Part shown: piece by piece, positions 1 to 62,929 of the stretch
Layout: every line of letters begins with the position of its first letter
Position numbering within the stretch: the stretch's first letter is position 1
Source: an uncultured delta proteobacterium
GTDB taxonomy: Bacteria; Desulfobacterota; Binatia; UBA9968
Direction: 5' to 3'
DNA: 64,000 bases
Assembly: GCA_963745835.1 (NCBI GenBank)
Contig: CAVUZH010000004.1
Span: forward strand, 1 to 64,000
Made by a program: the position numbers and the translations under genes
Notes under the pieces: model-generated
Told to the model about the DNA's origin: nothing
What the model saw: the letters and a program-made list of their open reading frames with translations, nothing else
Database searches by the model: none

Positions 1-185
1 CGCTGTGGGTAGAATTTACGGCTCTCCTTGTTCATCCTCGGCAGTGCCTGAGACAGGATACGTGATTACAGCAAGCATTCATATACATTCCGACCAATAC
101 CTCATAAAAGCGCTTCATACTCATGAGGTATGGACATACGCATCCAGCATTGGAGGGGAGGTAGGGGATGCCCGCCGGCGTCGTA

Positions 186-3100
186 TTACGCCAATGCCTC
201 TAGCAGCGCTTTGGCCTCCTGAAGGTTAGCGGTGTCAAAGCCCTCGGTGAACCAGCCGTAGAGTGGTGCTAACAGGCGTAGGCCTCAGCGCACCTGCCCT
301 GGTGCCGCCATAGATGCGCCAGGCTCATCGTCGCGCGCAGTTCGAGGGACTTGGCCTGTTGGGAGGGCCACGTCAAGGGCTTGGTGGAAACAGGTTTCGG
401 CTTCCTCAGAGCGCCTGTCAGAGCACGCAAGCAACAGCGTGCCTTTAAGCCAGCAGGGCTCGGCGTGATGCACATACTCGTCATTGGCCTGCATCACCTC
501 AAACGCTTCGGCAACCGTGCCAAGGCATCTTCCAGTGCGCCGATCTGCGCCAATGACTCGGCCAAATGTGCCAGCCAAGAAGGCGAGGAAGCTATCGCCT
601 CCGGAATTCCGAAACGTCTCGATACCCTGACGCAATTGCTTGACGCCGTCAGGATCACGGTCCCGGACTGCACGGTGCCATCCCAGCATGATGGCGGCGA
701 CACCTGCCATCTGCGGCAGGCCAGCCTCGGTCGCAGGTTTTTCCAGGCCGACAGATTGCTTATGGAGAGCCGTCCACTCACGGCGAAAAGCCAGGTAGAG
801 CAGGGAATGAAGTTGTGCCATCCCCTGGGTAAAGGCGTTCGGGCCGTTGGTGGCTAATGGTCAACGCCTCGTGACTCTGTTGCTGCGCTTGATCGGGATA
901 GCCGAGCAGCCACAGCGCGATGGACATATGCGAGCGACATGTCACATCGAGAGCCGCGGCGGTGGTCGGGATACGCTCCCAGGCCGGACAAGGCCTAGGT
1001 TGAAGTGATTCATCGCCTGATGCAACTGCCCCAGATAGAGGTAGGGTGCACCAGCGTTAAAATGCCCTTCCGCCATCAGCGTCGGGTCATCGGTTTGCTG
1101 CACCACGCGCAGGCCTTCCGCACCGATCTCAACAGCTCTGTGGTGCTCAGCACGACTAGTATAGAACGCCCGGAGACCCCGCAGGGCGGCAAAGCGCAGT
1201 GAACGATCTTCGCCGTGACCACAGAGTTGCCGCAAGCGAGCGTAGGTTTCGCCAACCTGCAGCGCCCCAACGCCGCTTGTGGCCGCAAGTGGTCGACCTA
1301 AAGCCAGGTGAAACCGTATCTCCTGGTCGACACGCGCGGCTGTTTCCGGTAGAGTTCCAAGCACCGTTAAGCCCTGAGTCACATGGGCAATCGCTTCGGG
1401 ATAAGCCGAGCGATGATTCGCCAAGTTGCTGGCTTGCTGCCAGTAGATAACCGCTGGCTCGCCAAGCCCGGCCTCCGTGTAGTGATGCGCCACGAGCTCA
1501 GGCTGGGTCGCGACGGTCTCTGGAAACTGGGCCTCTAAGACCTCGGCAATCTTCTGATGCATTTGCTGACGACGACCCCGCAACATGGACTGATAGGCCG
1601 TATCCTGGATTAAGGCATGTTTGAAGCTGTAGGTATTTTCCGGCGCCTGGCCACGTTGGGAAATGAGTTCCGCATCGAGCAGTTGACCGAGCGCTTTGTG
1701 AAGAGCCGTATCAGACAGAGGGGAAACCGCCCGCAAGACCGTATACGAGAATTCTCGACCAATGGTGGCACAAAGTTGCACCACCTCCTTCCCCTCGGCC
1801 AGACGATCGAGGCGGGCCATGAGCGAATCCTGCAAGGTTGCGGGGATTGCAAACGGGGGCAACGGTCTTTTGAGCTGATAGCTGTCGCCGGCATCCCTCA
1901 GCCACTCTGACTCCAAAATATGCTTGGTCAGCTCTTCGACAAAGAGGGGAATGCCGTCCGTTTTGGCTACGATCTGCTCGAGAACGTCAGCCGGTAGCGC
2001 TTTCCCTCCTGTCACGTGATGCACCAGGCTGACGGTCTGTCGGCGACTGAGACGATTCAGCGTATAGGTCGTCATCTGTCTCTCATCACCCCAGGTGGGC
2101 TTAAATTCCGGTCGAGAGGTGAGCACCACGAGCACCCGGGCATCTCGGACCTGATCGATGACATGATGGAGCACTTCTAAGCTGGTGGGATCGCTCCAGT
2201 GCACATCTTCAAAGAGAAACAAGACCGGTTCCTGCCGGGACAAGTTGACGAGACCCTGGGCAAAGAGCTCGAGGGTGCGCTCTTTCTGACGCTGTGGCGT
2301 CTGCGCAAGGGGTGGATAGTGGTCATCGGTCGGTATCGAGAGCATCACGGCAAATAACGGCACGGCCTCGTCCAGCGGGAGGCCGGTTTGCGTGACCAAC
2401 GCCTCGAGCCGCTCCAGCTTCACGCTCGAGGCGGCGTCAGGGGGAAGCTGCATCGCACGGGTCACTTGGGTGGCGATCGGATAGAGCACACTGTTCGTGT
2501 GATACGGGGAGCATTGATAATGTAGACGCACGTGAGATGCATCAGCGAGACGGGCACAAAGCGCTTGCAACAGACGCGACTTGCCAATACCAGGAGGGCC
2601 GTTCAGTAATACCACCTGCCCTTCGCCCTCCAGCACCTGTTCCCAGCACCGCATCAAGAGATCAACCTCCACTTTGCGGCCGACCATCGGCGTCAGCATG
2701 GTGGTCGTTGCGTCAAAGCGGCTGGCGGCGGCACTGAGGCCGCGCACGCGGAAGATCACTAGTGGATCGTTGACTCCCTTCAGGGCTGGCGTGCCAAGTG
2801 CGTCATAGTCGAACGTGCCCGCCACCAGGCGACGGGTCACGTCACTCATGACCACCGTGTTGGGTGCTGCCAATCCTTCTAGTCGAGCCGCAATGTTCGG
2901 TGTTTCACCCAAGGCTAAGTTCTCGTGTCGGTCACCGCCGCCCATTTCCCCGACTACCACTGGGCCCGTATGGATACCGAGCCGCACGGCGAGCTGGACG
3001 CCATAGGCCGGTTCCAACGTCGTATTGAGGTTGTCCATGGCTTCAACAATGCTTAGGCCGGTATGCACCGCCCGGTGTGCATCATCTTCGTGAGCGCGGG

Positions 3101-3601
3101 GCCAGCCAAAGTAGACCAGGAGCCCATCGCCCAGATACTGGGCGATATGGCCCTCATAGTGCTGGATCACTCTGGCCGCTCGCTCTGGTACGCGCGCACG
3201 ACCTCGCGCAGGTCTTCAGGATCAAGTTGCCCGGCGAGACGAGTGGAGTTGACCAAGTCACAGAACATGACGGTGAGCTGACGGCGTTCGGCGTCAGTGG
3301 GCCATGGGGCAGTCGAGGAGGAGACGGCATCCCTGGAGGTGTAGTCCGCCTGCGTCGAAGACGGGTGCACGGGCTCAGGAGGGGTTGAGGATGGCAGTGG
3401 CATCGCCCCAGCGACGCCAGTCCACACCAGCATCGTGCCCTCCTGATCAACGGCACACTGCTGGATCTCAATGATTTCCACCTTCAGATCGTCGAGATAC
3501 GCGTCGTCGAGATCGAACTGGCGCTTGAGTGCCCGGTACGACACCCGGCCGCGCTGGCATAGCAGCGCAAGGACCTGATCCAGCACAGCATAAAAGTCCA
3601 T
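186..3601 (-). pseudogene. Class III adenylate/guanylate cyclase - AAA/STAND ATPase - TPR protein, split by several frameshifts
   Basis: Pieces in different frames: [10 protein letters not shown] (ATG 3601), [37 protein letters not shown] (cyclase), GPPGIGKS (Walker A), LFEDVHW (Walker B), QQAKSLELRATMSLAHLW, and [29 protein letters not shown] ending at TAA 188-186. Breaks near 3180, 960, 560, 370 and 275. Could be sequencing error rather than real decay. Confidence 0.85.
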
Positions 3602-3769
3602 GATCGACGCTCTCCGGGTCTGTCGGGCAGTGACCAGACTGCATCGGCGTGATGCGCCGCGAACCTTCCTGCCTCCTCTCAAGGAGGAGACAGCGTCTCC
3701 TCCCAACAGTGCACGCATATCCCAGCAGATGAAGGAGCATACTATAAGCCGTATTAGACAATATCATAA

Positions 3770-4060
3770 AGGATAGACCAAAGCGAGACAGGGCCGGCAC
3801 CGCCGCTGAACGCCTCCAGCGCGATCACGCCCAGGCGCAGCGTGCTTACCGAGGTCCTCGAACAGGCCCTCCACAACGTGGGCCTACCTGACAATCTCGT
3901 CAAGGAGATCGAAGGCCGTCTCAGACGTCAGCAGACCTTGCTGGGCAAAATCTTTGGCCTCATGTTTCCGTCGCTCTTTGGCTGCCGCACGCTTTATGAA
4001 CTGAGCCACGTGCAGGGCTGGGATAAAAATCTGCCCTCGCGTGTGCTCGGCGCGCTGTCC
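3770..4060 (+). mobile_element. Truncated N-terminal fragment of a putative transposase
   Basis: RLQRDHAQAQRA..EVLEQALHNVGLPDNLVKEIEGRLRRQQTLLGKIFGLMFPSLFGCRT..GWDKNLPSRVLGAL resembles, from memory, the N-terminus of a repeated Tectomicrobia-type transposase. Similarity seems to stop near 4057. No DDE domain present. Confidence 0.45.
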
Positions 4061-4074
4061 TCTCTTATCGCTTC

Positions 4075-4198
4075 TTACCGACTTTGAGTAATTCTCGGTA
4101 AAATAGCCTGCTCGAGGCAGGCGATTTCCGTTAGCATCCCCCGCGCTTGGACATGATCACCTCGCCCCATTTACCGAGATGACAAGTGATCTCGGTAA
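4075..4198. repeat. Two related palindromes with TTACCGA...TCGGTAA arms
   Basis: 4171-4198 TTACCGAGATGAC-AA-GTGATCTCGGTAA (12/13 arm match). 4075-4101 TTACCGA-N13-TCGGTAA. Confidence 0.7.
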
Positions 4199-4369
4199 CA
4201 CGTCCTGGCGTTGCTTTCTGGCTGACCAGACAATGGGCGCCCAAATAGCTCATGTCAAAAAATGGACCTAGCCATGGCGCGGGTTTCCGCCCCATCCTCC
4301 CATCCCAACATTGGACAACATGGTGCATGATCGTAAACACCTGGTTTCTACGATATCTGGTGTACTGTG

Positions 4370-5336
4370 TTATCCGTAAATGCCATATTCACCCAATCCG
4401 TTTTTGAGAATTATATCCCCCGCAGCTGCTAGTCGCTTATACATCTCCTCCGCCTCCTGCCTCGAATCCGGCGCCAGCGCAATCCGCTCAAAGATAGACT
4501 CCAAGTCCTCTCCCCGTTTATACGCCCGCACCACATGCGTATGCCGCAACGTCTTCGGCGTCAATTCCTTCTCAATACCGGTTTCCCGTTTTAACTCCTC
4601 AAAAATCATCCGCAGAAACCGATCCGTAAAGGGAAATAATTTGTCTGTCAACCGGATATTTTTCAAGGTATTGGGTATACACGGCCGTAAATCTCGCCGG
4701 CAACGCAACTTTGCGATCCTTTGTCGTTTGTTTCCCGGTGTGTTTGATCCACAGTTCCGGATTATAGGGGTCTGAGATATCGACATGGGCTTTGGTGAGG
4801 AGGAATAACTCATTGCTTTTGATACCGGTATCCAGAAACAATAAAACCAACAGGTACAGCCGCGGGTCTGTACTCGCCGCTTTTGTCAGTATTTCAATTT
4901 CATTCTCATAGAGGTAATCCGGCAACGGCGACTGGATGCGGGCGTTGTTGAGAGATAGCGTAGGATCGCGCGTAATCGCCCCTAAGCCCCGTAACCAGAG
5001 AAAATAGGTAATGATCGCACTCACCTTCCGATTGACCGTCTTGCGCTCAATCCCCTTCCCGGCCGGCGATACCAGCGATCCGATCCACTGCTGTAAATCA
5101 TGCGAGGAGATGTCCTGTAATTTCTTGTTCTTCAGATAGATCGAAAGCTCCCGCACATCCCCAAAATACATTTTGGCAGTCTTCGGCGCGTATTTCTCAG
5201 CCACAAATGCCTGAAACGCCACCAACGTCTGCATGACACTACTCTCCCCTGTCGGCGTCACCGGCTTTAATATTTGTGCGGGTGGTTTCTTCTGGAATGT
5301 TCTTCGAAGGAATAATGGCAGTTGATCAATTTTCAT
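4370..5336 (-). CDS. XerC/XerD-like tyrosine recombinase with atypical catalytic residues (frameshift near 4650)
   Basis: SAM-like N-terminus (YAPKTAKMYFGDVREL, TVNRKVSAIITYFLWL), LPDYL, LLFLDTGIKSNEL; after the frameshift LFPFTDR, LTPKTLRHTHVV and EEMY. Likely start MKIDQLPLF at 5336. Confidence 0.8.
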
Positions 5337-5537
5337 ACATTTTAGCTTCAATTTTGACGGCCGGAATTGCCGTTCGAACTCCATTATATCACTTCCGAGA
5401 ATCAAGTACGATTCTCCCCCACCCCATTCCCTTTTTTACTGTTTAAGGACGCGCGCGGAGAATGCCTTGATTCTCGGAAGGAGAGAAGTTTATCATTATT
5501 GTTTATGAAAATAGTGTCTTCGAAGATGGAAGTATAA

Positions 5538-5619
5538 CAGCCTCATTTTCATGCCGCTTTTTCGATTCTCTTTTTTCAATTGCAAGACGCGGCGAGGGGC
5601 GGGTGGATTCTGCGAAGTA
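5538..5619 (+). repeat. Copy 1 of a diverged ~85-bp non-coding direct repeat
   Basis: Shares blocks CAGCCTCA(A)TTTTC, GCCGCTTTTTCGATTC, TTTTTTCA and TCTGCGAAGTA, in the same order, with 6424-6508. Confidence 0.8.
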
Positions 5620-5859
5620 CACCTGGTTGTCTCATTTACTCACCAATTTTTCGAAATTGAGAATTTAGTGAGTTTATGAGATGAAGAAAATACTCATTGG
5701 GGGTATCCACGTAAGGCGGGACACTCTGTAACATAAGGGCTTCAGGCTTTTGAAGCCGGAGCCGCCGGGGACGGGCTTTCCGGCACTTTAAGTCACGATG
5801 GCCGTCTTCCAACTGTCCCGCGTTAAACGGATACCCTTTACTGGTGAAAGGAACCTCCG

Positions 5860-6366
5860 ATGTGGCAGTGTCTTCCCGTACTCGATCCTCAGGCGCGCCC
5901 ATGCCTTATGCCCAGCTGGCGTTGGCTCGTCGTGGGGGGCTATGCCGCGGGCCTCTTCGCCCTCTCCTCGGCGCCTGGGAGCAGCCGCCTCTTGGCGGCC
6001 GAGAACCGCCTCGTCCGGCGGCAGCGCCGGACCCTGCCCCGCTGGCTGCCCAGTGACAAGGTTTTCCATGCGCTTGTCTTCGGGCTGGGAACAGTGTTGC
6101 TGTGCCGGGCACTCCACTCCCGGACGCCAGCACGTTCCCCACGGCAGATCGCCCTCAGCAGCGTCCTGGCCGCGCTCGGCTACGGCATCACCGATGAGCT
6201 CCACCAGGCCCGCGTGCCCCAGCGGACTGCAGAGGTTGCCGATGTCGTAGCCGATGGGCTGGGCGCCGCGCTGGCCGCATGGGGATGGCTGCATGGTGCA
6301 AACAGAGTCAAAACTTTCTTTACCTCAGCGCGGCCTGCCAAAATTAATGCTCCCAATTTCCGATAA
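5860..6366 (+). CDS. VanZ-family membrane protein
   Basis: SDKVFHALVFG and YGITDELHQARVPQRTAEVADVVADGLG are VanZ-family motifs. AAAGGA RBS upstream. Very GC-rich (45/60 GC in 5941-6000). Confidence 0.85.
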   Translation: MWQCLPVLDPQARPCLMPSWRWLVVGGYAAGLFALSSAPGSSRLLAAENRLVRRQRRTLPRWLPSDKVFHALVFGLGTVLLCRALHSRTPARSPRQIALSSVLAALGYGITDELHQARVPQRTAEVADVVADGLGAALAAWGWLHGANRVKTFFTSARPAKINAPNFR

Positions 6367-6384
6367 CCCGACGTTATCGGAAAT
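6356..6384. other. dif-like palindromic site (candidate tyrosine-recombinase site)
   Basis: ATTTCCGATAA-CCCGACG-TTATCGGAAAT: perfect 11-bp inverted arms with the ATAA/TTAT inner ends typical of Xer sites. Confidence 0.55.
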
Positions 6385-6423
6385 AGAAGGGCATGTAGAA
6401 TTCATAATTCCCCTCCCCCGTTT

Positions 6424-6508
6424 CAGCCTCAATTTTCCGGCCGCTTTTTCGATTCCTTTTTTTCAGTGGGAAGGGGCGGGGAGAGTACGGGACTGACTCT
6501 GCGAAGTA
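6424..6508 (+). repeat. Copy 2 of the diverged ~85-bp repeat
   Basis: Same conserved blocks as 5538-5619. Confidence 0.8.
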
Positions 6509-6954
6509 TGATCATTTGGGGATTTTTGCGTAGTATCTCGACTGATTTTCCGTTATTGGCCGATGACGAGCCTAGGAAAATAGCCATGTTGCTATCAGAC
6601 GACTGGCTATATGCGGGGGCATTCGGAGCAGATGCAAGGTGAAGTGGGGATTATCTTACCCTGGAGGTGTAAAACGAGAAAAAGAGCTGGAGGGGGAAGC
6701 CGCGTTTGTGGGCTGAGGATCGCTTCTTGGCATTTGTGGCGGGTTTATTGCTTCGTGTCGGTTTTGCTTTTTTCATCATAATTCTATTAAAGCAAATCCG
6801 ATTTGTGGGCTGTAAAGAGAGGCCGATTATTTCAGACTGGATCGAAATATATCGCAATATGATGATCGATTTTCTTCTCATTGAAATCTCATCAATTATT
6901 CATAATTACAATAAGTAAAAAAGTAATTATAGTATAGTTTCACTTTTGAGGTTA

Positions 6955-6985
6955 GACTTGACATTTTCAAGTCAACTCTTATACT
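6955..6985 (+). promoter_or_regulatory. Sigma70-type promoter overlapped by an operator-like palindrome
   Basis: TTGACA (6958-6963)-N16-TATACT (6980-6985). GACTTGA-N5-TCAAGTC covers the -35 box. Lies 25 nt upstream of ATG 7011. Confidence 0.6.
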
Positions 6986-7010
6986 AGTACTTAGAGAGTT
7001 ACGTTAAAGT

Positions 7011-7217
7011 ATGGAGGATACTATTGATTACAAACCATTTTTCGGATTACTAGAAGAACCTTTTAATACGGTCGCCTCTCCCCGCTTCTTTTTCCTCTCT
7101 CCTATTCACGCCATCGCTTTGAATAAATCCGTCTTCACGGTTGATAACCGCAAAGGCGTCTCGGTCGTGTGGGGCGATATCGGCACTGGCAAATCAACCC
7201 TTGCACGTATCATGCAC
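7011..7217 (+). pseudogene. N-terminal fragment of an ExeA/GspA-like AAA ATPase
   Basis: YKPFFGLLEEPFN..PRFFFLSPIH and Walker A GDIGTGKST. The sequence switches to a hydrolase gene right after ARIMH. Confidence 0.75.
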
Positions 7218-9007
7218 GATTACCGACATCGACCTGGCGCCGCGTAACTCTAGCGGCATGGTCGAATATTCGGCCGATGTGCACATTATTAAACCTATCG
7301 ACATGTCCAAGGGAAATCAAAGAATTTTCTACGATGTCGTAAACCGCGGCAACAAAGGGCACGGCGCCTTTAATGAAGTGGGCGGCAACAATCCGACGAC
7401 TGCGGCAGATGCAGGCACCGGTCTGCTTATGCGCCGCGGCTATACCCTGGTCTTTTCCGGTTGGGAAGATGAAGGGCTCGTGCCTCCAGGGAATAATCGC
7501 GCCCTTGCCAGGCTGCCGATCGCCCGAAATCCCGATGGCAGCTCGGTTGTAGAGCATACGATCACCGAGGTCATCTTCGACAATGCCAACGGAACCGATT
7601 TCGAATTGACTTATCGCGCGGCTAATCTTGACCAGAGTCAGGCCAAGATGCTCGTGCACAACCACACACATTTTATCGGAGGTCCCCTCGTTGACCGGGT
7701 CGAGGTACCGGCAAGCGTATGGTCCTACGTGGACGATACAACCGTCCGGATCAATCGCGCAGATCCGTTTTTGGCTCGGTACGATCAGGGGGCTGCCTAC
7801 GAATTTGTTTATCCGGCCAAGGACCCGCAGATCCTGGGGCTTGGGCTTGCAGCCACGCGCGATGTAGTTTCGTTTCTGCGTCACGATACTTCCGCGGAGA
7901 ATCCTCTACGTGGCGGGATTCAGTACGTCATCGCTCATGGATCGTCCCAGAGCGGCCGATACTTGAAGGGCTTCACCTACTGGGGCTTCAACGAGGACGA
8001 GGCCGGGCGCAAGGTCTTCGAAGGTATTCAACCTAAGATTTCCGGCGCGCACGCAATCGCCAGCAACGATAGGTTCGGCGATACAAACGCCACCGGCCGA
8101 AGTTATCAGAGACATTTGAGCGCTAAGCAGGAATTTCCCGTTTACATACGAAGTGCGGTTCGATCCCATCAGCGGCCTCACGGACGGCATTTTCGCACGC
8201 TGCCAAGTTACTGACACTTGTCCGAAGGTGATGCATACCGACAGCGCCAACGAGGCTTACCTCAAGCCCACCGCGCTCGTGACGACAGACAGCCTGGGTA
8301 ATGACATTCGGTTGCCGGACAATGTCCGCGTGTTCATGGTTGCAGGCACACAGCACGGCCCATCCGCCACCCCGCAAACCACCGCCACATGCCAGCAACT
8401 CAGCAATCCCAATCCGCACAATCCGACGGTTCGGGCGCTCTACATGGCGCTCGATGATTGGGCGACGAAGGGCATAAGGCCGCCTGGAAGTCGATATCCG
8501 AGAGTTAGCGATGGAACCCTCGTACCGTCTTTGCCGCAATCGGTTCAAGGCTTCCCGGCGATTCCAGGCGTGAACTACACGGGATGGTACAACCCGGTTG
8601 ATCTGTTGGATAAGAGCACACTTCCAAATATGCCGATTCCTGGAAAGAGCTATACCGTATTGGTGCCGAAGACAGATGTCGACGGCAACGATATCGCGGG
8701 CGTCCGGCACCCCAACATCGAAGTACCGATAGCAACGTACACCGGCTGGGCTCTTCGGCGTGCGCCCTTCGCTGAAGGAGAAGATTGCGCTCTGACAGGC
8801 CAGTACATACCTTTTGCGGCAACGAAAGCCGAGCGGCTCGCAGATGGCGACCCGAGACTCTCACTGGAAGAGCGCTATCGAAATCACGGTCACTATGTGA
8901 GTCAGGTCGCCCGCGCAGCAGATCGTCTCGTTCGCCAACGCCTACTTCTGGACGAAGATTCGGTGGACATCATCACAGCAGCCGCGGAAAGCGATGTCGG
9001 CAAGTGA
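7218..9007 (+). CDS. Alpha/beta-hydrolase-domain protein, 5'-truncated, frameshift near 8140; paralog of 11041-13110
   Basis: ITDIDLAPRN..VEYS, YDVVNRG, HGSSQSGRY nucleophile elbow, GFNEDE, AGTQHG, DVDGNDIAGVR, GDPRLSLEERY. Aligns by eye with the paralog from about its residue 78. Confidence 0.8.
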
Positions 9008-9072: not shown

Positions 9073-10395
9073 ATGCCAAAAAAGATGTTCTGGCTATCAG
9101 CCGTTATGAGCCTGACACTCGTGGCCGTCGTTTCAACCTCGTTCGCCCAAACTACCCCGGTATTCGTTCAACTTGGCCAGGCGAAAGGGGCAGTTTACAA
9201 ACCGGATTCCGGGACGCAATTGCAAATCGGTATTCTAGTCATGCATCGCGAAGCGAATTACATGAACAACATCGCCTGCAGGGAATTCTCAAGCAGAGGC
9301 TTTGTGGTTCTCTGTATGAACTCGCGATTCGAAAACAATGAGGCTCTAGTGGACTGGGAGCTGATCCCCCTCGATGTGGCACAGGGAGTGAATCACCTCA
9401 AGAATGTTCAAAAAGTGAATAAGGTGATTCTCTACGGCAACAGTGGCGGTGGAGTAACGATGAGCTTCTATCAGGCTGTCGCCGAGAACGGGCCTTCAGT
9501 CTGCCAAGGCGCCAATAAGCTTGTCCAGTGCGGCAATAATCTCGCCGGGATTCCTCCCGCCGACGGCATCATACTCTCCGATGGACATCCCGGTAATCCG
9601 ATCCTGCGGCTTAGAAGCATCAATCCGGCAGTGAACAACGAGAAAAACCCGGACCGATTGAATCCTCGGCTCGATCCATTCGATCCCAAAAACGGCTATA
9701 ACCCGGCAGGACCGTCACACTATTCCGAGGAGTTCAAGGCAAGGTATTTCAAAGCTCAAGCTCAGCGGATGAACGGTCTGATCGATGACGCGCTGGAACT
9801 CCTGCAGAGAATCGAGGCGGGTAAGTACATTTATACCGACGACGCGCCGTTCAACATTCCAAAATTTGATGGAGCGCGACTGCTCTCGCTTGACCCGAGC
9901 ATCCGCCACACCACGTTATTTCCTGAGAAGCTACTCAAGAACGACGGCAGCATCGCCGTGCAGATAGTTGAGAGTCTCGCTCCATCGCGCCCGGAGCTTA
10001 AAGAAGCCAACCAGACATTCAGCGAGGGCTCTCGGGAAGGGTTGACGGTGAGGTCTTTTCTAAGCAGCAACGCGATCCGGGCAGCCAATTCCATGGACGA
10101 AACGCAAATTGACCTTTGCTCAAGCAATAATTCGACCCCCTGCATGCTTCAGCAGGTCTCGGTCCCATTGCTGGCCGCTGCCAATCAGGCGTCCTTTCAA
10201 AACCTCATTCAAGAAGTCGAGATCAATTACTTATATGGTAAGAGCACGGATAAGGACTTTATCGTCGTGGAAGGAGCGACCACCGGCGTCACTCCCTGCA
10301 CGAACTGTCCGCTCCCCGCTTCGGCCTATTCCAACGTCACAAACAATTTTTTCAACTACGCCGCGAAATGGATCAACGACCGGTTCCTTGAGTAA
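9073..10395 (+). CDS. Secreted alpha/beta-fold hydrolase
   Basis: Signal peptide (..SFA/Q), GNSGG nucleophile motif, GAGGA RBS. Confidence 0.75.
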   Translation: MPKKMFWLSAVMSLTLVAVVSTSFAQTTPVFVQLGQAKGAVYKPDSGTQLQIGILVMHREANYMNNIACREFSSRGFVVLCMNSRFENNEALVDWELIPLDVAQGVNHLKNVQKVNKVILYGNSGGGVTMSFYQAVAENGPSVCQGANKLVQCGNNLAGIPPADGIILSDGHPGNPILRLRSINPAVNNEKNPDRLNPRLDPFDPKNGYNPAGPSHYSEEFKARYFKAQAQRMNGLIDDALELLQRIEAGKYIYTDDAPFNIPKFDGARLLSLDPSIRHTTLFPEKLLKNDGSIAVQIVESLAPSRPELKEANQTFSEGSREGLTVRSFLSSNAIRAANSMDETQIDLCSSNNSTPCMLQQVSVPLLAAANQASFQNLIQEVEINYLYGKSTDKDFIVVEGATTGVTPCTNCPLPASAYSNVTNNFFNYAAKWINDRFLE

Positions 10396-11040
10396 TATCC
10401 ACAGTTCCATTGTAAAATGCTTGATGCCCAATCATGTACAAATTGTTCAACAGCTAAACGAGTCGAGGAAGATCGATCGTCTGAGATAAGGAAAAGTTTA
10501 GTCCTGCCCATAACAACAATAAGGCCATTGAGACGTAACTAAGATGTAGACTGAGGTCGGGGGTGGGTCGCAGACTCTAATTGCGCAAGAAGCGGCAGCG
10601 CCGGCCAACAAGTTGCCAACTTAGTAAAATGCTGTGCCCGGTTGTAACGGGGGATTTTCGATTGACAGCCAGCGCCCGGTCCTCACATGGAGCGCTAATC
10701 TTTTGCTCTTTGGGCTGCCATAAGAAAACTTATGGCGGCCATTCAATAAAGTGATTGGTCAACCGCCTAGTTTTCAGATAACTGCTCTAGAGCCAGGATG
10801 AGAGGACTAGTGTGAGTCGGTCCTTAAATCTTATCTGAGCAACCCCGAGCTTTCAAAGACGCGGCAGGCTCGGCCCTGAGTGGAAATGGAGAACTGAATG
10901 TTCTCGAATCATGTGCCCGACGTGAAGCTCTTGCGCTTTGTGGGCGATGATATTTCCACTCGGGGCTTTCGGTAAGGTTGCGACCAATCATTGGCTCCTT
11001 CAGTTCCTAAGAGGAAATCTCCAAACAGGAGGACAAAAAG

Positions 11041-13110
11041 ATGATTCCCACAGCTCGGGTTACAAAACGAACCGCGATTATCTGGTTACTCATCGCGCTG
11101 TTGCTGATTCCTGCGTTTAGCGAAGCGCGTATAACGAAGATCGTCATCGACCCCGCTCGGTCGCAGTCACCCACGTTCGATGGCGTCTCCTTCGGAGCGG
11201 TCGGTCAATACGAGAAGCTTCGTGGCACAGCCTACGGTGAGCTTGACCCCTTGGATGCACGAAATGCTCTGATCACCGACATTGAGAACGCGCCCCGAAA
11301 TGCCAGCAGCAAGGTCGAGTACTCAATGGACATCTTCATCCTCAAACCGATCCATTTGGGCAGCGGCAACCATCGGATCCTGTTGGACTTCAACAACCGT
11401 GGCGAGATGCGGTTAGGCAGGCTCAACGAAGTCGAGTTAACCAACAATCCGACCACGGCCGCTCACGCGGGCAACGGTTTTATCATGAAGCTAGGCTATT
11501 CCGTTGTAGGCAATGGGTGGGATTTCGGTGCGACGAGCGACGACGACGGGTTAACCATATCTGTTCCAGTAGCGAAAAACCCGGTTGGATCGGCCAACCC
11601 CGACATCACCGGTCCGTCGTACGAGTACATCGTGTTCGACAACGCCACGACGATGCAGAGCGCGCTCGCCTATGCGGCGGCGACTTTGGACAAGTCTCAG
11701 GCGACGCTCACCGTGCGCGCGCGCCTGGATGACCCGCCAGTAATAGTGCCCGAAAGCGGCTGGGAATACACCTCGGCTGCGGGTACGGCCATTCGCTTGC
11801 TGCCGACCGGAACGGCGTTCCAGCAAAGCCACATCTACGAGTTCACGTACACGGCGAAGAATCCCGTCGTGGCGGCGATCGGTTTGGCGGCGACGCGCGA
11901 TTTCGTGTCCTTTCTGCGCCATGCGGTGAGCGACGATTTCGGCAGTCCCAATCCGCTCGCTGGTGATGTGCAGCACACCTTCAGCTATTCCATCTCGCAG
12001 CCCTCGCGTACTTTGAACGACTTCCAGGCGCTCGGGTTCAACGAAGACGAGCAGGGCAGGCGTGTCATCGACGGAATACTCAGCCATACCGGCGGCGGCA
12101 GCGGCGACCAAATCAACTATCGGTTCGGGCAGACCGGAAGAACCGAGCGCAACCGCCAGAACCACTTGTACCCGGAAGGCGTGTTCCCGTTCGCCCATCA
12201 GGTGTTGAAAGATCATCTCAGCGGCAAAACCGGCGGGCGTAGTGAGCTCTGCCGGGCGAGTCATACTTGTCCAAAGCGCTTCGAAGTCAATACCGCCAAC
12301 GAATATTGGGTCAAGGCAGGTTCACTGCTGCACACTGACACGCGAGGCAGGGATTTGAAGGATCCGGAAAACGTGCGCTTTTATCTGATCTCTGGCTTAT
12401 CGCATGGCGTCGGCAATGTAACCACTAGGGGAACGTGCCAGCAGTTTCTCAACCCAACCAGCCCCTATCCTGCACATCGTGCGCTATTGGTCGCGCTTGA
12501 CGAATGGGTGAGCCACGGGACCATGCCGCCAAAGAGTGAGGTGCCGCGGGTTTTCGATAACACGGCCGTCTTCGCAGTGCCGCAGGCTGGTTCTCAGACC
12601 GGTATCGTGCCGCAATCCGCCCTTGGCTGGCCCACGCTTCCCGGTGTGACGTATAACGGGCTGATCACAACTCGGTACTTTCTCGATTTTGGGCCGTTGT
12701 TAGATAATGGCATTGTCTCGAACTACCCGCCCTCAATCGTAGGACGTCCTACGTACCCGATCTTTGTCTCCAAGGTGGATGAGGATGGCAACGAAGTGGC
12801 CGGCATCCGCATGCCCCCGGTCGAGGCGCCGATTGCGACCACCACCGGGTGGGCATTGCGCCGCGCCGGCTTCAGCGAAAACGAAGGTTGTGAGGCGAAT
12901 GGTCAACACATCGCCCTCAAGACCACCCAAATGGAGCGAATGGCCGTCGGTGATCCGCGTCAGTCGCTCGAAGAACGCTACAAGAATCACGATGGCTACG
13001 TAAAGGCTGTGACCAAGGCTGCTGACAAATTGCAGAAGCAGCGGTTCCTTCTTCCAGATGATGTGCAGCAATATATCGATGAAGCAGAGGCAAGTAACGT
13101 GCTTCAGTAA
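11041..13110 (+). CDS. Secreted alpha/beta-hydrolase-domain protein (689 aa)
   Basis: Signal peptide (SEA/RIT), FGAVGQYE, NNRG, SISQPSR, GFNEDE, DEDGNEVAGIR, GDPRQSLEERY. GGAGG RBS. Confidence 0.85.
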   Translation: MIPTARVTKRTAIIWLLIALLLIPAFSEARITKIVIDPARSQSPTFDGVSFGAVGQYEKLRGTAYGELDPLDARNALITDIENAPRNASSKVEYSMDIFILKPIHLGSGNHRILLDFNNRGEMRLGRLNEVELTNNPTTAAHAGNGFIMKLGYSVVGNGWDFGATSDDDGLTISVPVAKNPVGSANPDITGPSYEYIVFDNATTMQSALAYAAATLDKSQATLTVRARLDDPPVIVPESGWEYTSAAGTAIRLLPTGTAFQQSHIYEFTYTAKNPVVAAIGLAATRDFVSFLRHAVSDDFGSPNPLAGDVQHTFSYSISQPSRTLNDFQALGFNEDEQGRRVIDGILSHTGGGSGDQINYRFGQTGRTERNRQNHLYPEGVFPFAHQVLKDHLSGKTGGRSELCRASHTCPKRFEVNTANEYWVKAGSLLHTDTRGRDLKDPENVRFYLISGLSHGVGNVTTRGTCQQFLNPTSPYPAHRALLVALDEWVSHGTMPPKSEVPRVFDNTAVFAVPQAGSQTGIVPQSALGWPTLPGVTYNGLITTRYFLDFGPLLDNGIVSNYPPSIVGRPTYPIFVSKVDEDGNEVAGIRMPPVEAPIATTTGWALRRAGFSENEGCEANGQHIALKTTQMERMAVGDPRQSLEERYKNHDGYVKAVTKAADKLQKQRFLLPDDVQQYIDEAEASNVLQ

Positions 13111-13155
13111 GTGCGGAAATTCAGTCTGTCGCTTCCGCGGAGGCGTGGCATAAGG

Positions 13156-13193
13156 GAACGCCCGATCCCGTATAGGTTCGGGCGTTTTTCTTT
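13156..13193 (+). terminator. Rho-independent terminator
   Basis: AACGCCCGA...TCGGGCGTT followed by a T-rich tract, 45 nt after the stop. Confidence 0.8.
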
Positions 13194-13408
13194 CAAGGCA
13201 ACAGCGCGTCAGGGCAGATGCGGCGGCCAAGCCCGCTGTATGTACACAATCGGCAGTGCGTCAACTATCGATTGATGATGACAGACGTGGCTCGAGCACC
13301 GATAGTATTTGGTCGTGGTGAATGGTGCTACCCAGGGGGGACGCCCTGCACGAATTGTGCTAATCCTCCGGCGTAGTGATGCGAATGCGAGGATCCTAAA
13401 TCGGCGAG

Positions 13409-61571: not shown

Positions 61572-62929
61572 CAGTTTTCCGTCACGGCGTGGATAGACTC
61601 GTAAACCGTATCCAAAAGTAAAGCGAGCTCGGCATCCGTAACCGATAGCGGTGGCATCAATATGATGATGTCTGCCAGGGGTCGGATCATGACATTGCGT
61701 TTGCGCGCTTCGATAATCACTTTGTGACCAATGCGCTTTTCAGCGGGATAACTTTTGCGGCTGGCCTTATCCTCGACCAGCTCGATGCCGACCATGAAAC
61801 CCCATTGGCGCACATCGCTGATGTGCGCCAATGGCAGAAACTCTTCTCCGAGCCGCTGGTTTAGATACGAGATTCTCGGCTGCATGTTGTCGACGATGTT
61901 TTCTCTCTGGAATAACTCGAGATTCGCAAGCGCCGTCGCACAACCGAGCGGATTGCCCGTGTAAGTATGGCCGTGAAAAAAGGTTTTATAGTCTTTGTAG
62001 TCACCTAAGAAGGCGGCAAAGACTTGTTCGCTGGTTAATGTCGCTGCCAGTGGCAGGTAGCCGCCGGTGATTCCTTTGGCCAGACAGACAATATCGGGCC
62101 TTACTCCAGCGTGATCGCATGCAAACATCTTTCCGGTGCGACCAAAACCCGTCGCTACTTCATCAAGAACCAACAGAATTCCATAGCGCCGGCAGATTTC
62201 ATCGAGCGCTTTCAGATATTCCACGGGTTGGGCCCACATCCCCGCGGCTCCCTGCATAAGCGGCTCCACGACCAGAGCGGCCAGTGTATTTCTATTCTCG
62301 CTAATTTTTTTCTCCGCTTCATCGACAGCCGCATTAAGCGCCTCATCTCCGCTCAATTTCTGGTAGTAGCGAAAGACATGCGGCGGCGTGATTCGCACCA
62401 CCGGAAACAGCAGGCTCTTGTGATAACGATGAAAGGTTTCAGAATAGCCCATGCTCATGGAGCCGATGGTATCGCCGTGGTACGACTCCGCCAGCGTCGC
62501 AATCAGGGTGCGCTTGGCTTGTCCTTTTAATTGCCAGTACTGGACCGCCATTTTGAGAGCCACTTCGACTGCCGTGGCGCCACTGTCGGAATAGAAAACC
62601 CGCTGCAGTCCTGGAGGAGCCACTTCGATGAGCTTTTGCGCCAACTCAATGCCGGGCACATGGCTCAGGCCGAGAAATGTCGAATGGGAAATGCGGTCGA
62701 GCTGGCCGCGTATGGCATCGTCGAGCTCTTTTTTGCGATGCCCGTGAACGTTGCACCAAAGTGATGAAACTCCATCGAAATACCTGCGGCCGTTAATGTC
62801 GATCAGGTAATGCCCTTCGCCTTGGCTGATAATGCAGGGCTCCTCACGGATCCATTCCTGCATTTGCGTGAACGGATGCCAGAGGTGGCTATGATCCAGC
62901 TGCTTGAGGTTGTCGTAGTATTGAGTCAT
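61571..62929 (-). CDS. bioA: Adenosylmethionine-8-amino-7-oxononanoate aminotransferase
   Basis: WHPFTQM, SSLWCNVHGH, YHGDT, DEVATGFGRTG, KGITGGY. Confidence 0.96.
   Translation of the reverse strand: MTQYYDNLKQLDHSHLWHPFTQMQEWIREEPCIISQGEGHYLIDINGRRYFDGVSSLWCNVHGHRKKELDDAIRGQLDRISHSTFLGLSHVPGIELAQKLIEVAPPGLQRVFYSDSGATAVEVALKMAVQYWQLKGQAKRTLIATLAESYHGDTIGSMSMGYSETFHRYHKSLLFPVVRITPPHVFRYYQKLSGDEALNAAVDEAEKKISENRNTLAALVVEPLMQGAAGMWAQPVEYLKALDEICRRYGILLVLDEVATGFGRTGKMFACDHAGVRPDIVCLAKGITGGYLPLAATLTSEQVFAAFLGDYKDYKTFFHGHTYTGNPLGCATALANLELFQRENIVDNMQPRISYLNQRLGEEFLPLAHISDVRQWGFMVGIELVEDKASRKSYPAEKRIGHKVIIEARKRNVMIRPLADIIILMPPLSVTDAELALLLDTVYESIHAVTEN

Follow-up and report, generated by a model that had tools for sequence, protein, structure and literature searches.

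The segment at ~4060-7217 of the window (by which we mean the whole stretch of 64,000 nucleotides that was analysed) is best explained as the remnant of a horizontally acquired, now decayed recombinase-and-site module, in which a vanZ gene would have been put between two direct repeats, B and C, by site-specific recombination. We give this explanation, taken as a whole, a probability of roughly one half. The parts of the segment and its immediate neighbours are the following.

~4060..7217, foreign lower-GC mosaic segment (left limit approximate, right limit exact at 7217/7218)
4054..4307, module downstream of the recombinase, with small palindromes at 4171-4198 and 4075-4101 (inverted repeat I8, direct repeat D8)
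4411..5336, minus strand, XerA-like tyrosine recombinase pseudogene, from ORFs, homologue alignment, and Pfam and PDB matches
5383..5391, minus strand, extended -10-like box TGATATAAT directly after the proximal arm of site A, read from the sequence
5392..5480, site A, a perfect 15-nt inverted-repeat pair (arms 5392-5406 and 5466-5480) bounding a 59-nt segment
5536..5619, plus strand, repeat B, a degenerate direct copy of site A with the end GGATTCTGCGAAGT (nhmmer E = 4e-20)
5701..5836, plus strand, 136-nt element with 23-nt terminal inverted arms (I1), 24 nt upstream of vanZ
5860..6366, plus strand, VanZ-family gene (the cargo) of 168 aa, GC 0.66, above Pfam and NCBIfam cut-offs
6356..6384, perfect palindrome ATTTCCGATAAC-N5-GTTATCGGAAAT with 12-nt arms and a 5-nt loop (I13), at the far end of the cargo slot
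6425..6508, plus strand, repeat C, a second degenerate direct copy of site A with the end TGACTCTGCGAAGT (nhmmer E = 3e-24)
6509..6656, variable filler of 148 nt, replaced in related elements by 3-20 other bases
6657..6746, plus strand, stretch common to locus L081 (75% identity over 91 nt), directly after the single repeat of that locus
6958..6985, plus strand, promoter-like site TTGACA-16-TATACT ahead of the ATPase stump (11/12, a consensus match only)
7011..7217, plus strand, 5' stump of an ExeA/AAA_22-type ATPase, ~70 codons including Walker A, from profile matches below cut-off
7219..9007, plus strand, host Abhydrolase_10 gene, first ~77 codons missing, with a frameshift near 8153-8214

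A foreign segment in decay

The GC content is 0.42-0.50 throughout 4061-7217 except in vanZ, against 0.60 in the left flank and 0.54 in the right one, and the segment is present in one copy in this genome. In two genomes of the same genus (G004 and G005), homology begins precisely at 7218; window 1-7217 is missing from G005 at the orthologous place, and the DNA flanking the hydrolase gene in G005 is found here at the start of another contig (C1:1-5499). The foreign origin of the segment is thus shown at the level of sequence.

Both the recombinase gene and the genes at the right border are damaged. The recombinase is divided between two overlapping ORFs (4599-5405 and 4370-4813), and alignment to 307-aa homologues (58-92% identity) places a first frameshift near 4646-4648 and a second one near 4417-4424, which brings the family stop codon (4411-4413) out of frame. 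One-base differences in this gene are seen in related metagenome contigs. An earlier note on this DNA had described a tyrosine recombinase gene divergent from a GC-foreign vanZ; the layout and the composition hold, but the recombinase is broken. The same note had placed an ExeA-like ATPase on the element, of which only the 5' stump was retrieved, scoring 17.3 bits for AAA_22 (cut-off 27) and 41.6 for TIGR03015 (cut-off 324.5). This fragment was matched by none of 81 related loci, and one locus group carries a 33%-identical AAA_22 ATPase at the equivalent place. The connection of the ATPase with the module is weak. The stump ends at 7217/7218, where the 5'-truncated hydrolase gene of the host starts, and related metagenome contigs run on differently past 7219. 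The hydrolase aligns to its intact paralogue (11041-13110) from residue 78; its orthologues are 96% identical over the last 284 residues of the protein and have open frames of 680 aa in G004 and 803 aa in G005. Broken genes are restricted to the first 9 kb of the window. The module is dead in this genome, with a recombinase frameshifted twice and neighbouring ATPase and host hydrolase genes truncated.

The module downstream of the recombinase is abundant by itself in soil metagenomes: run X1 gives it summed depths of 2247 and 1324, and adjacent bins 103 and 486. Positions 4240-4461 are common to locus L026 at 80% identity. We consider it very improbable that low-GC pieces, vanZ and host flanks were misjoined in a metagenome-style assembly with 9.3% contamination. 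Both ends of the segment adjoin truncated genes, the window begins a contig, and every piece of the segment other than vanZ is high-copy in soil metagenomes, all of which a chimera could produce. However, 4240-5491 is collinear with L026 and 4411-5618 with six other loci (L027, L029, L030, L031, L068 and L038), the module at 6356-6507 is intact in L038, independent data break at 6508 and 7218 too, and damage confined to this end of the window is expected of a decaying island.

The recombinase family and its invertible site

Full-length homologues pass PF00589 (cut-off 27.1 bits) with 59.0 bits for L051 and 55.5 for L019, which places the family in the tyrosine recombinase superfamily. The two fragments of the window reach 18.7 and 19.8 bits, below this cut-off because the gene is split, and the window recombinase passes PF02899 (32.4 against 22.3 bits). 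Its best solved relative is XerA (5hxy, E = 3e-17), and the recombinase stays below the NCBIfam equivalog cut-offs of XerA_Arch (97.2 against 220 bits), XerC (72.2 against 335), XerD (69.5 against 330) and the IntI profile TIGR02249 (33.8 against 265).

Profile alignment to XerA indicates an incomplete catalytic set, with Lys at Arg-I, Lys at His-II and Leu at His-III; Arg-II and a C-terminal Tyr are retained. Across 47 full-length representatives of the family, the Arg-I position is occupied by Lys in 38, Arg in 6 and other residues in 3, and Arg-II is Arg in 46. A study on Cre reports that R173K is active in vivo, that Lys at Arg-I abolishes activity in vitro and that the two His positions accept Gln, Leu and Met (PMC2943603). 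Similarly, IntDOT is described as having no Arg at the canonical Arg-I position and recruiting one from elsewhere in the protein (PMC8138268). By analogy, an intact recombinase of this family would plausibly be active. The extended -10-like box at 5383..5391 is likely the promoter of the gene; its plus-strand ATTATATCAC is kept in 21 of 23 aligned sequences (L023 and L077 differ), and it was not listed by a promoter scan.

This uncharacterised clade is very abundant in soil metagenomes, with 3809 contigs of the family in one run, and nearly absent from binned genomes, plasmids and phages. The family was found in none of 40 relatives and in none of 400 genomes sampled across the phylum (E<=1e-40), and the recombinase had no match in 72,556 plasmid records. 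Homologues 40-63% identical occur in metagenome-assembled genomes of Patescibacteria and Saccharibacteria. Wherever a count was possible, genomes have a single copy of the gene, and all three carrier genomes hold other canonical, Xer-like genes of the integrase family (PF00589, 100-154 bits). A housekeeping Xer/dif dimer resolvase was considered as a candidate and rejected in view of these other PF00589 genes, of an inverted pair accompanied by direct copies, and of the absence from all 40 and all 400 genomes.

Site A lies between the recombinase gene and repeat B. Missing from the earlier note, it is the best conserved site of all, with 100% complementary arms (I3) and DNA folding scores of z = -4.6 and -6.0. 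Such a pair, with perfect arms and an interior of 59-120 bp, precedes the recombinase gene in 51 of 82 records, including those of the 40-63%-identical Patescibacteria and Saccharibacteria homologues. The arm sequence shifts between recombinase clades, yet complementarity is kept (...CCGAGAATCA, ...CGGGGAATCA, ...CGCAGAGTCA). In 406,929 nt of loci, the arm motif was counted 124 times where 5.2 occurrences would be expected, and the 64-kb window holds five matches, four of them within 5391-6507. This linkage and co-variation mark the sites as cognate to the adjacent recombinase.

The interior of site A is exactly reverse-complemented in two of the 51 records (L033 and L064), in two sequence backgrounds and with both flanks collinear, and recombination therefore acts at the site. 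Alignment of these loci demonstrates a natural inversion, the difference in orientation lying between loci and not inside one clone or population. With inverted repeats around a segment that occurs in both orientations, site A answers to the description of an inverton. A promoter scan listed no promoter-like site inside the segment; a promoter-like TTGATT-18-TATCAT at 5467-5496 begins in the distal arm and ends beyond the invertible segment. In L046, a GC-rich insert of 1.5 kb is located within site A, and not at repeats B or C.

The earlier note had named pdif modules and IMEX elements as precedents; an element of that kind, moved by the host XerC/XerD at dif-like sites, now seems a very remote prospect. 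The palindrome at 6356-6384 can be read as 11-7-11, near the geometry of dif, and the nearest named families of the recombinase are XerA, XerC and XerD, but it falls far below all three cut-offs. Moreover, the arm sequence follows the clade of the neighbouring recombinase from host to host and is therefore not a host dif, the three carrier genomes have their separate canonical integrase-family genes, and the flanking repeats are direct, whereas pdif modules, found on plasmids, are bounded by inverted pairs of 28-bp XerC/XerD sites. Two of the five Xer arms that had been proposed are without comparative support. The XerD-arm-like CTGTAACATAA (5726-5736) is present but within the 136-nt element, which occurs elsewhere unlinked to sites, and the half-site GTTATCCGTAAAT (4369-4381) is present but not conserved in L026, the one locus read there.

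Repeats, palindrome and variable cargo

The two diverged direct repeats of ~85 bp that had been pointed out earlier were recovered as B and C, with 66 of 87 aligned columns identical and a common ending ...CTGCGAAGTA. Repeat B has a motif score of 11/12, and a third site copy stands at its position also in the distant homologues L042 and L044. Both repeats also have similarity to 5340-5368, located between site A and the start codon (D9), so that they look like internally deleted copies of the whole 5' region of the gene. They fold no better than shuffles (z from -0.2 to +1.3). A second arm is not evident beyond ...GAAGT, and for this reason a complete core site cannot be drawn at the cargo junctions.

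The palindrome holding the vanZ stop codon was confirmed as a perfect 12-5-12 structure, which as DNA folds into a simple 12-bp stem (z = -5.4). By chance, 64 kb should contain about 0.03 such palindromes; the window has one at only one other position. Its arms, like the ends of the repeats, are variants of the 11-mer of the site-A arm. It recurs in L038, L043, L061-63 and L087, and 6356-6507 as a whole is 84% identical to L038 191-37, where it is found intact.

The cargo ORF is assigned to the VanZ family by PF04892 (36.2 against 30.1 bits) and NF037970 (vanZ_1, 50.5 against 20), and its best match in the 40 relatives and the rest of the same genome is at most 41% identical. No second context with this vanZ segment came to light, and metagenome contigs with a ~90%-identical vanZ continue differently. 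The 136-nt element in front of it folds as RNA with z = -4.0 and has no Rfam match. A copy 88% identical lies in L074, immediately before the start of a DUF1349 ORF, and the summed depth in run X1 is 7736, against 134-406 in the flanking bins. A structured leader RNA is one possible identity of the element, a small mobile repeat another.

Other loci carry other cargo. In L038, a ferritin/Dps-like ORF comes after a repeat and is itself followed by the same palindrome, then by the same ~120 nt and a repeat, and in L043 an ORF of 141 aa of unknown function is followed by the same palindrome. The cargo ORFs of these two loci and vanZ all face away from the recombinase, and cargo GC exceeds recombinase GC in all four cases, the L046 insert included. 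Platforms lacking vanZ were found in L081, in the L027 group and in contigs from three metagenome runs; in L081 and the L027 group, a single repeat is directly followed by the 6657 region. Comparison of the loci thus documents platforms with other cargo in this slot as well as empty ones, and the test suggested in the earlier note, a comparison of homologues for variable cargo between conserved sites, came out largely in its favour. That note had seen a single cargo gene and no array; likewise, no locus has more than one cargo ORF between sites (the window, L038 and L043 have at most one each), and about 3.7 kb of the longer loci, L029 for example, hold no further site copies.

The joints between shared and variable DNA are precise. 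Contigs from three of four metagenome runs depart from the window exactly at 6508 and rejoin it at 6648-6666 (joints 6508->6657, 6508->6666 and 6508->6648 in runs X1, X2 and X3), and L081 has 13 nt where the window has the 6509-6656 filler. No conserved ORF was seen in the stretch 6657..6746. In the L027 group, a similar-looking stretch follows the single unit, as judged by eye only; no alignment tool reported a match. Close loci part ways immediately past the distal arm, past GATGGAAAT or past repeat B, so that across the aligned loci the breakpoints coincide with sites. Upstream, 15 sequence classes were distinguished among 23 close loci at +141 to +440 beyond the distal arm; past the recombinase stop codon, there are 13 among 18 loci, and in a second clade homology is limited to the span from distal arm to stop codon. 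Chimeric joins can occur in metagenome contigs, and neither a circular junction nor an excision product turned up in the loci and contigs compared.

The DNA past the stop codon is equally variable, a pattern that one would not expect of a one-sided, integron-like platform, and the recombinase module itself may be what moves. A unit of ~1.1-1.25 kb, recombinase plus site A, would then be a minimal integrative element landing in many places, vanZ and the other neighbours would be chance landing-place DNA, and B and C would be relics of earlier copies left by tandem accretion and deletion. This account is rather unlikely in our estimate. It fits the variation on both flanks (15 of 23 classes upstream, 13 of 18 downstream), the sharp stop of homology at distal arm and stop codon in two clades, the resemblance of B and C to internally deleted 5' regions, and a family hugely abundant and diverse in soil metagenomes. 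On the contrary, one copy per genome wherever checkable and the lack of a shared core or target duplication at either end speak against it. Chance neighbours do not predict three loci with one outward-facing ORF and the same palindrome, and L025, L045, L070 and L072 have one conserved neighbourhood on the HU side in common (in L070, where it was read, HU, Ros/MucR and ParA), which bears no mark of independent insertion.

Another alternative is a plasmid backbone, in which repeats and palindromes would be a promoter, operator, multimer-resolution site or terminator, the mosaic would result from homologous or illegitimate recombination, and the recombinase would merely resolve multimers or flip its own switch. 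Close homologues do lie among ParA, HU, UmuDC, Ros/MucR, toxin-antitoxin and resolvase genes, a site directly upstream of its recombinase is a layout of plasmid and XerS/XerH-type resolution systems, and promoter-like sites overlap the distal arm (5467-5496). We nevertheless find this improbable, as the divergence points are site edges in many independent loci and runs, palindrome arms and repeat ends share the arm 11-mer linked to the recombinase, resolution needs one core and not an inverted pair with direct copies, and none of the 72,556 plasmid records matched.

In the preferred explanation, the core of the module would be the XerA-like recombinase gene, with Lys at the first catalytic Arg, and its cognate site cluster directly upstream. 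Site A would consist of two core-like sites in inverted orientation, with ~60 bp between them that the recombinase can invert, and B and C would be degenerate direct copies of it, having vanZ, its 136-nt leader and the terminal palindrome between them. The vanZ segment would have been inserted through such sites, either by integration of a circle or by exchange between two platforms, with the logic of cassette insertion in integrons or of IMEX accretion at dif, but by means of the element's own recombinase and sites. We infer the crossover position, that the recombinase would catalyse these inversion and insertion events, and that cargo segments would move as units. Cassette capture by a recombinase and sites of the element, and not by host Xer/dif or an integron, is partly supported, because loci diverge at sites, the cargo in the slot differs and vanZ-less platforms exist. 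The non-IntI cassette system proposed earlier survives to the extent of its shared recombinase and sites, divergence at sites and other cargo, but DNA varies on both sides of the recombinase.

Relation to known systems and meaning

To our knowledge, integrons are the only well-established platform that joins a recombinase gene, an adjacent site and captured single-gene cargo. As in integrons, recombinase gene and cargo are divergent, the recombinase has its site directly upstream, the cargo is one promoter-distal ORF, foreign in composition, that stands between repeated sites with its stop codon inside a site, and both filled and empty platforms are known. The differences from integrons are that the protein is no IntI, that attC-type hairpin folding is missing from repeats B and C, that an array of several cassettes is not seen, that the DNA on the other side of the recombinase varies too, and that an invertible inverted-repeat pair serves as the primary site. 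IMEX and Acinetobacter pdif modules similarly have cargo bracketed by short recombinase sites of dif-like arm-spacer-arm geometry and material that appears to pile up beside a fixed site; however, the sites here go with an element-encoded recombinase, not host XerCD, and the flanking copies are direct ~85-bp repeats, not 28-bp sites.

In XerS/difSL and XerH/difH, the site lies beside the recombinase gene. The module shares this arrangement with them, and archaeal XerA is the closest solved and named relative, but the protein is under every equivalog cut-off, has Lys at Arg-I and both His replaced, coexists with other canonical Xer-like genes in its carrier genomes, and is served by an inverted pair 59-120 bp apart instead of one 28-31-bp site. 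Invertons such as FimB/FimE-fimS, RecV switches and Bacteroides invertible promoters resemble site A in their perfect inverted repeats, short segment, adjacent tyrosine recombinase gene and occurrence of both orientations in nature. They differ in that the segment here is merely 59-120 bp, extra direct site copies bracket cargo, and orientation differs between loci and not within one population. Finally, IntDOT is a natural tyrosine recombinase that likewise lacks Arg at the canonical Arg-I position (PMC8138268), although it belongs to a different subgroup, with an arm-binding domain and a conjugative-transposon context, and the position here is a conserved Lys.

The recombinase module, with its own invertible switch and repeated recognition sites, is of an undescribed, soil-wide kind. 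More tentatively, it might represent a soil-common, non-IntI platform for capture and switching, characterised by a XerA-like clade with Lys for Arg-I, an invertible site, slotted foreign cargo and travel between lineages. Cargo would then slot between direct site copies and the cognate palindrome, and the platform would travel between soil bacteria with large genomes and lineages that are uncultured (Patescibacteria and others).

For this genome the meaning is modest, the module being a dead remnant and vanZ an isolated passenger. If a second capture platform unrelated to integrons does exist beside them, it would broaden what is known of how genes flow in soil, also between the tiny-genome bacteria of candidate phyla and ordinary bacteria. 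Current surveys would miss the family, because it is nearly invisible in genome bins and in plasmid and phage collections. The conserved Lys for Arg, together with the sequence evidence of recombination at cognate sites, also bears on which residues tyrosine recombinases need.

The GC-poor segment and its genomic setting

The GC content is 0.42-0.50 throughout 4061-7217 except in a VanZ-family gene, and rises to 0.60 in the left flank and 0.54 in the right one. The features of this segment are as follows.

4411-5336, minus strand: tyrosine-recombinase gene, read as two overlapping ORFs (4599-5405 and 4370-4813)
5392-5406 and 5466-5480: site A, two perfect inverted repeats of 15 nt, placed after the 5' end of the recombinase gene and ahead of repeat B
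5536-5619: repeat B, a direct repeat ending in ...CTGCGAAGTA
5701-5836: 136-nt element with 23-nt terminal inverted arms and a multi-stem RNA fold (z = -4.0)
5860-6366, plus strand: VanZ-family ORF, GC 0.66
6356-6384: perfect palindrome (12-nt arms, 5-nt loop) with the vanZ stop codon inside
6425-6508: repeat C, a direct repeat ending in ...CTGCGAAGTA
7011-7217: ATPase stump of ~70 codons, scoring below every family cut-off

The core observation of the earlier note, a recombinase gene divergent from a GC-rich vanZ accompanied by repeats and a palindrome, is real, since the ORFs, repeats and composition of the window confirm it. Site A had been overlooked, the recombinase gene is broken, and the ExeA-like ATPase credited to the element is reduced to the stump. 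Repeats B and C are identical in 66 of 87 aligned columns. Palindromes like that of 6356-6384 are expected ~0.03 times per 64 kb and occur at one other place in the window (61802-61836), which is its only other perfect palindrome with arms of at least 12 nt and probably a terminator. An Rfam scan of 4000-7500 at E<=1 returned zero matches.

The region 4100-7400 is single copy in the 7.28-Mb, 25-contig genome. Two genomes of the same genus (G004 and G005) align to the window at 89-93% identity, starting exactly at 7218. The window copy of the hydrolase gene found there is frameshifted and lacks its first ~77 codons; the orthologues of G004 and G005, 96% identical at the protein level over the last 284 residues, have open frames of 680 and 803 aa. 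The G004 contig stops 387 nt upstream of the boundary, and the hydrolase-adjacent DNA of G005 matches, at 84% identity, the first 5.5 kb of another contig of the source genome (C1:1-5499). Together, the G005 alignments from 7218 and the location of its hydrolase flank on C1 indicate that 1-7217 is missing from the orthologous place in G005, and that it abuts a truncated host gene with an assembly gap on the other side. As that flank is the start of C1, the first 7.2 kb of the contig appear to be an insertion or a rearrangement with the assembly gap behind it.

One metagenome contig, 97% identical to 7218-7600, has a different sequence upstream of 7218, and ATPase-like metagenome contigs have a different sequence after 7219; the 7217/7218 join thus appears to be a real difference from related sequences. 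That the segment as a whole is an assembly chimera is very improbable, most of its joins being collinear with independent loci.

Three genes are broken in the first 9 kb, namely the regulator, the recombinase and the hydrolase. The large regulator gene (942-3718) consists of two ORFs in different frames (942-3170 and 3167-3718, overlapping at 3167-3170), which suggests a frameshift, its domain content being judged from sequence alone. Further right, ~3 kb (10386-13400) containing an intact hydrolase paralogue (11041-13110) are missing from the otherwise collinear G004 and G005 contigs. To the left of the recombinase, 4054-4307 contains the small palindrome TTACCGAGATGAC..GTGATCTCGGTAA (4171-4198) and another, less pronounced, at 4075-4101; this stretch is abundant in soil metagenomes independently of the recombinase, and its arms loosely resemble the recombinase-site arms.

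The recombinase and where its family occurs

Compared with its 307-aa homologues, the recombinase is frameshifted near 4646-4648, and a second shift near 4417-4424 puts the family's stop codon (4411-4413) out of frame. Related metagenome contigs have a one-base difference from the window at both places. A word-indexed search retained 323 proteins at E<=1e-3 from 827 candidates; the best 120 of these 323 matches have 58-92% identity, are typically 307 aa long and are nearly all metagenomic, often on 1-3-kb contigs. With E-value thresholds of 1e-30, 1e-10 and 1e-3, a full HMMER scan of 1.84 billion cluster representatives gave 67, 832 and 9042 matches, respectively.

The closest solved structure is that of the archaeal XerA (5hxy, E = 3e-17), and NCBIfam scores lie well under the cut-offs for XerA (97 bits against 220), XerC (72 against 335), XerD (70 against 330) and the integron integrase (34 against 265). 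The nearest ESM Atlas clusters, taken as a lead only, are generic integrases, most commonly of Chloroflexota. When the protein is aligned to XerA, the first catalytic arginine (Arg-I) is replaced by lysine (TGxKSNE), the first histidine by lysine and the second histidine by leucine, and the second arginine is retained; the C-terminal tyrosine is invariant in 13/13 close homologues. At the Arg-I position, 38 of 47 full-length representatives (identity as low as 22%) have lysine, six have arginine, including the three clearly canonical sequences of the set, and three have another residue. According to a study of Cre, the R173K mutant recombines in vivo and not in vitro, and glutamine, leucine or methionine are tolerated at the two His/Trp positions (PMC2943603). 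Another article describes that in IntDOT the function of Arg-I is provided by an arginine elsewhere in the protein, and defines a 'Cand' subgroup of Xer-related recombinases of candidate phyla (PMC8138268). A limited full-text literature search found no description of the present family or of its site architecture.

The best recombinase matches in 40 relatives of the source genome have 22-30% identity only, and the VanZ-like genes of the source genome and these relatives reach at most 41% identity to the window VanZ, both tallies taking in two unpublished genomes (G012 and G018), on which no individual conclusion depends. The family was found at E<=1e-40 in 0/400 genomes sampled across the phylum, a count at odds with the ESM Atlas lead if this phylum is Chloroflexota, and had no match at E<=1e-15 in 72,556 plasmid and 50,697 phage records and no relative among viral contigs. 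A pattern-based scan of 185,579 species genomes yielded three loci, all metagenome-assembled (Patescibacteria, Saccharibacteria and 'Gammaproteobacteria'). A role as the housekeeping Xer of candidate-phyla bacteria was considered and rejected, because canonical genes of the integrase family, with scores of 100-154 bits, are present as well in every one of these carrier genomes. Related contigs are abundant in soil, rhizosphere and winery metagenomes, where four runs each contain 486 to 3809 of them across the stretch compared, with a summed depth over the recombinase gene in the thousands in two runs (X1 and X2). Parts of the stretch occur in 20 runs from ten studies, none holding more than one third of its sampled words; these runs are other than the source sample, and gaps in their coverage are uninformative.

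Close homologues neighbour genes for ParA, HU, UmuDC, Ros/MucR, toxin-antitoxin systems and resolvases, and more distant ones neighbour defence genes (TIR, Mrr, type I restriction-modification, Cap15/SMODS, KwaB, AAA_15/21), contexts that are plasmid-like and island-like. It is rather unlikely that the repeats are simply plasmid-backbone signals in a mosaic assembled by general recombination. A HU-type DNA-bending gene adjoins the module in several loci (L033, L070 and the L025/L045/L072 group), and it may be speculated that it helps to loop so short an invertible segment. Two homologues are interrupted, one by ~600 nt between the site and codon ~25 (L057, 7393-8070) and one by ~440 nt within the gene (L074, 2757-3196).

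Recombination sites and the 136-nt element

Sites were compared in 78 metagenome loci and three genome loci, that is 82 records with the window. In 51 of them, the recombinase is immediately preceded by a pair of the form of site A, ...TTCnnnnA(A/G)TCA / TGA(T/C)Tnnnn GAA..., with an interior of 59-120 nt; records devoid of the pair are mostly cut contigs or relatives of 23-35% identity. A 12-position arm motif occurs 124 times in the 406,929 nt of these loci compared with 5.2 expected from shuffles, and has five matches in the window, four of them at 5391, 5468, 5605 and 6494. The arms stay complementary while their sequence shifts with the recombinase clade: they are of type ...CCGAGAATCA or ...CGGAGAATCA at 79% or more identity to the window recombinase gene, ...CGGGGAATCA at 56-63% recombinase identity and ...CGCAGAGTCA in a 40%-identical Saccharibacteria locus. 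The earlier note had taken other sequences of the segment, among them the ends of the direct repeats, as Xer-like arms and the palindrome as dif-like. That the host XerCD/dif system moves the segment is now scarcely probable, since the arms co-vary with the adjacent recombinase.

A small palindrome, GAGAAT(C)-N6-(G)ATTCTC, makes up either end of site A, which can therefore be read as an inverted pair of core-like sites. Two loci of different sequence backgrounds (L033 and L064) have the entire interior exactly reverse-complemented relative to the other 49, between collinear flanks. This inversion is direct sequence evidence that recombination occurs between the arms. Repeats B and C match site A as degenerate direct copies in nhmmer searches, and they bear a resemblance to the stretch separating site A from the start codon (5340-5368) as well; folding revealed no hairpin in either. 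The arms of the palindrome (ATTTCCGATAA) differ from the site A arm (ACTTCCGAGAA) at 2/11 positions, and recombinase homologues in L038, L043, L061-63 (61% identical to the query) and L087 (32%) are preceded by the same palindrome. At one locus (L046, 6305-7935), 1.6 kb instead of the normal ~70 nt separate the two arms of the recombinase-linked inverted repeat: site A contains a 1.5-kb insert (GC 0.66) that is flanked by a 10-nt direct repeat and has two ORFs, neither belonging to a known family.

The 136-nt element is a separate entity and not a site of the recombinase system. The XerD-like arm of the earlier note, CTGTAACATAA (5726-5736), lies inside it, and the half-site GTTATCCGTAAAT (4369-4381) is not conserved in the one locus read for it, L026. 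The element is single copy in the source genome, and a second copy of 88% identity was found at 6957-7092 of L074, just upstream of the start of a DUF1349 ORF; both copies thus precede the start of an ORF, and two of their differences keep a stem paired through G-U on the plus strand only. Its depth exceeds that of neighbouring bins ~20-60-fold in X1 and 7-110-fold or more across four runs, and its borders coincide exactly with the end of at least one metagenome contig. The element may be either a small mobile repeat or a leader RNA. It has no match in Rfam, and only short matches (24-42 nt) in 400 genomes of the phylum. An unrelated repeat family of one genome (G384) has ~23 nt in common with its 5' arm; in these repeats, which lie in L113 (1500-1620) and L117 (100-340) of that genome, the ~23-nt stretch is followed by tandem ~45-nt units with a GC-rich hairpin. 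The element and the palindrome were both rejected as classical, integron-type attC sites on inspection of their sequence.

Cargo variation and the nature of the module

Several observations favour capture. Loci of at least 79% identity part from each other at three places, each of which ends in GAAGT or GAAAT: directly behind the distal arm, at the end of GATGGAAAT in the linker and after repeat B. Beyond the arm, 23 loci comprise 9 sequence classes over the initial 140 nt and 15 at +141 to +440. L038 shares the architecture of the window but has other cargo: its first repeat precedes a ferritin/Dps-like ORF of 203 aa (90 bits with Pfam Ferritin), after which come the palindrome, ~120 nt as in the window and again a repeat; its identity is 84% to window 6356-6507 and 79% in the recombinase gene. 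L043 has a 141-aa ORF of unknown family followed by the palindrome. The cargo ORFs of the window, L038 and L043 are all directed away from the recombinase (3/3), and these ORFs and the 1.5-kb L046 insert have a higher GC than the recombinase. Platforms devoid of vanZ also exist. L081 and the near-identical group of L027, L029, L030, L031 and L068 have a single C-type repeat, followed in L081 by 13 nt and then by the sequence of window 6657-6746, and contigs from three of four runs depart from the window exactly at 6508 and rejoin it at 6648-6666, with 3-20 other bases between.

Other observations count against capture. In the 300 nt past the recombinase stop codon, 18 loci represent 13 different classes, and the L046 insert sits inside site A rather than at a B-type site. 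Members of a second clade (L047, L048, L050, L051, L054 and L057) are homologous only between the distal arm, or a point ~155 nt ahead of it, and the stop codon. The recombinase-plus-site unit is thus an island in DNA that is mosaic on both sides. A possible, less favoured explanation is that this unit itself is the mobile thing and its neighbours are incidental; no shared core or target duplication was evident at its two ends. No locus showed two cargo ORFs separated by sites, longer loci had no extra site copies, and looking for more arm pairs in the long loci at low stringency gave noisy output and zero arrays. A complete core site could not be drawn at the cargo junctions, and the position of the crossover stayed ambiguous when the single repeat of L027 and L081 was set against B and C. 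Metagenome relatives of vanZ (~90% identity) continue differently at both ends, so that no second context was found for the same vanZ segment; ESM Atlas matches to VanZ, all scoring at most 0.85, gave no pointer to its origin. Two joints (5355->5550 on opposite strands and 5745->4392), each on one contig with short sides, were not used as evidence.

A tblastn search of 81 loci with the ATPase stump, VanZ and three small ORFs gave one weak small-ORF match only, which leaves a conserved ATPase partner unsupported. L029 encodes a 287-aa AAA_22 ATPase (GC 0.45) divergent from the recombinase, with ~2.9 kb of DNA of GC 0.6, CBS-domain genes included, between them; it matches the window stump at only 18/54 aligned residues and is one weak parallel rather than a conserved partner.

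The cassette-capture proposal of the earlier note hence stands in part: cargo varies between conserved sites and platforms without vanZ occur, with no array and with variation on both flanks of the recombinase. We give a probability of about one half to the reading that the window copy is a dead, horizontally acquired recombinase-and-site module, whose recombinase would act on its own inverted and direct site copies and in which vanZ would have entered between two such copies through site-specific recombination. Inversion and cargo capture by a recombinase are of a known kind, of which the window module would be a variant, and its interest is due to the recombinase family rather than to the broken copy of the window.
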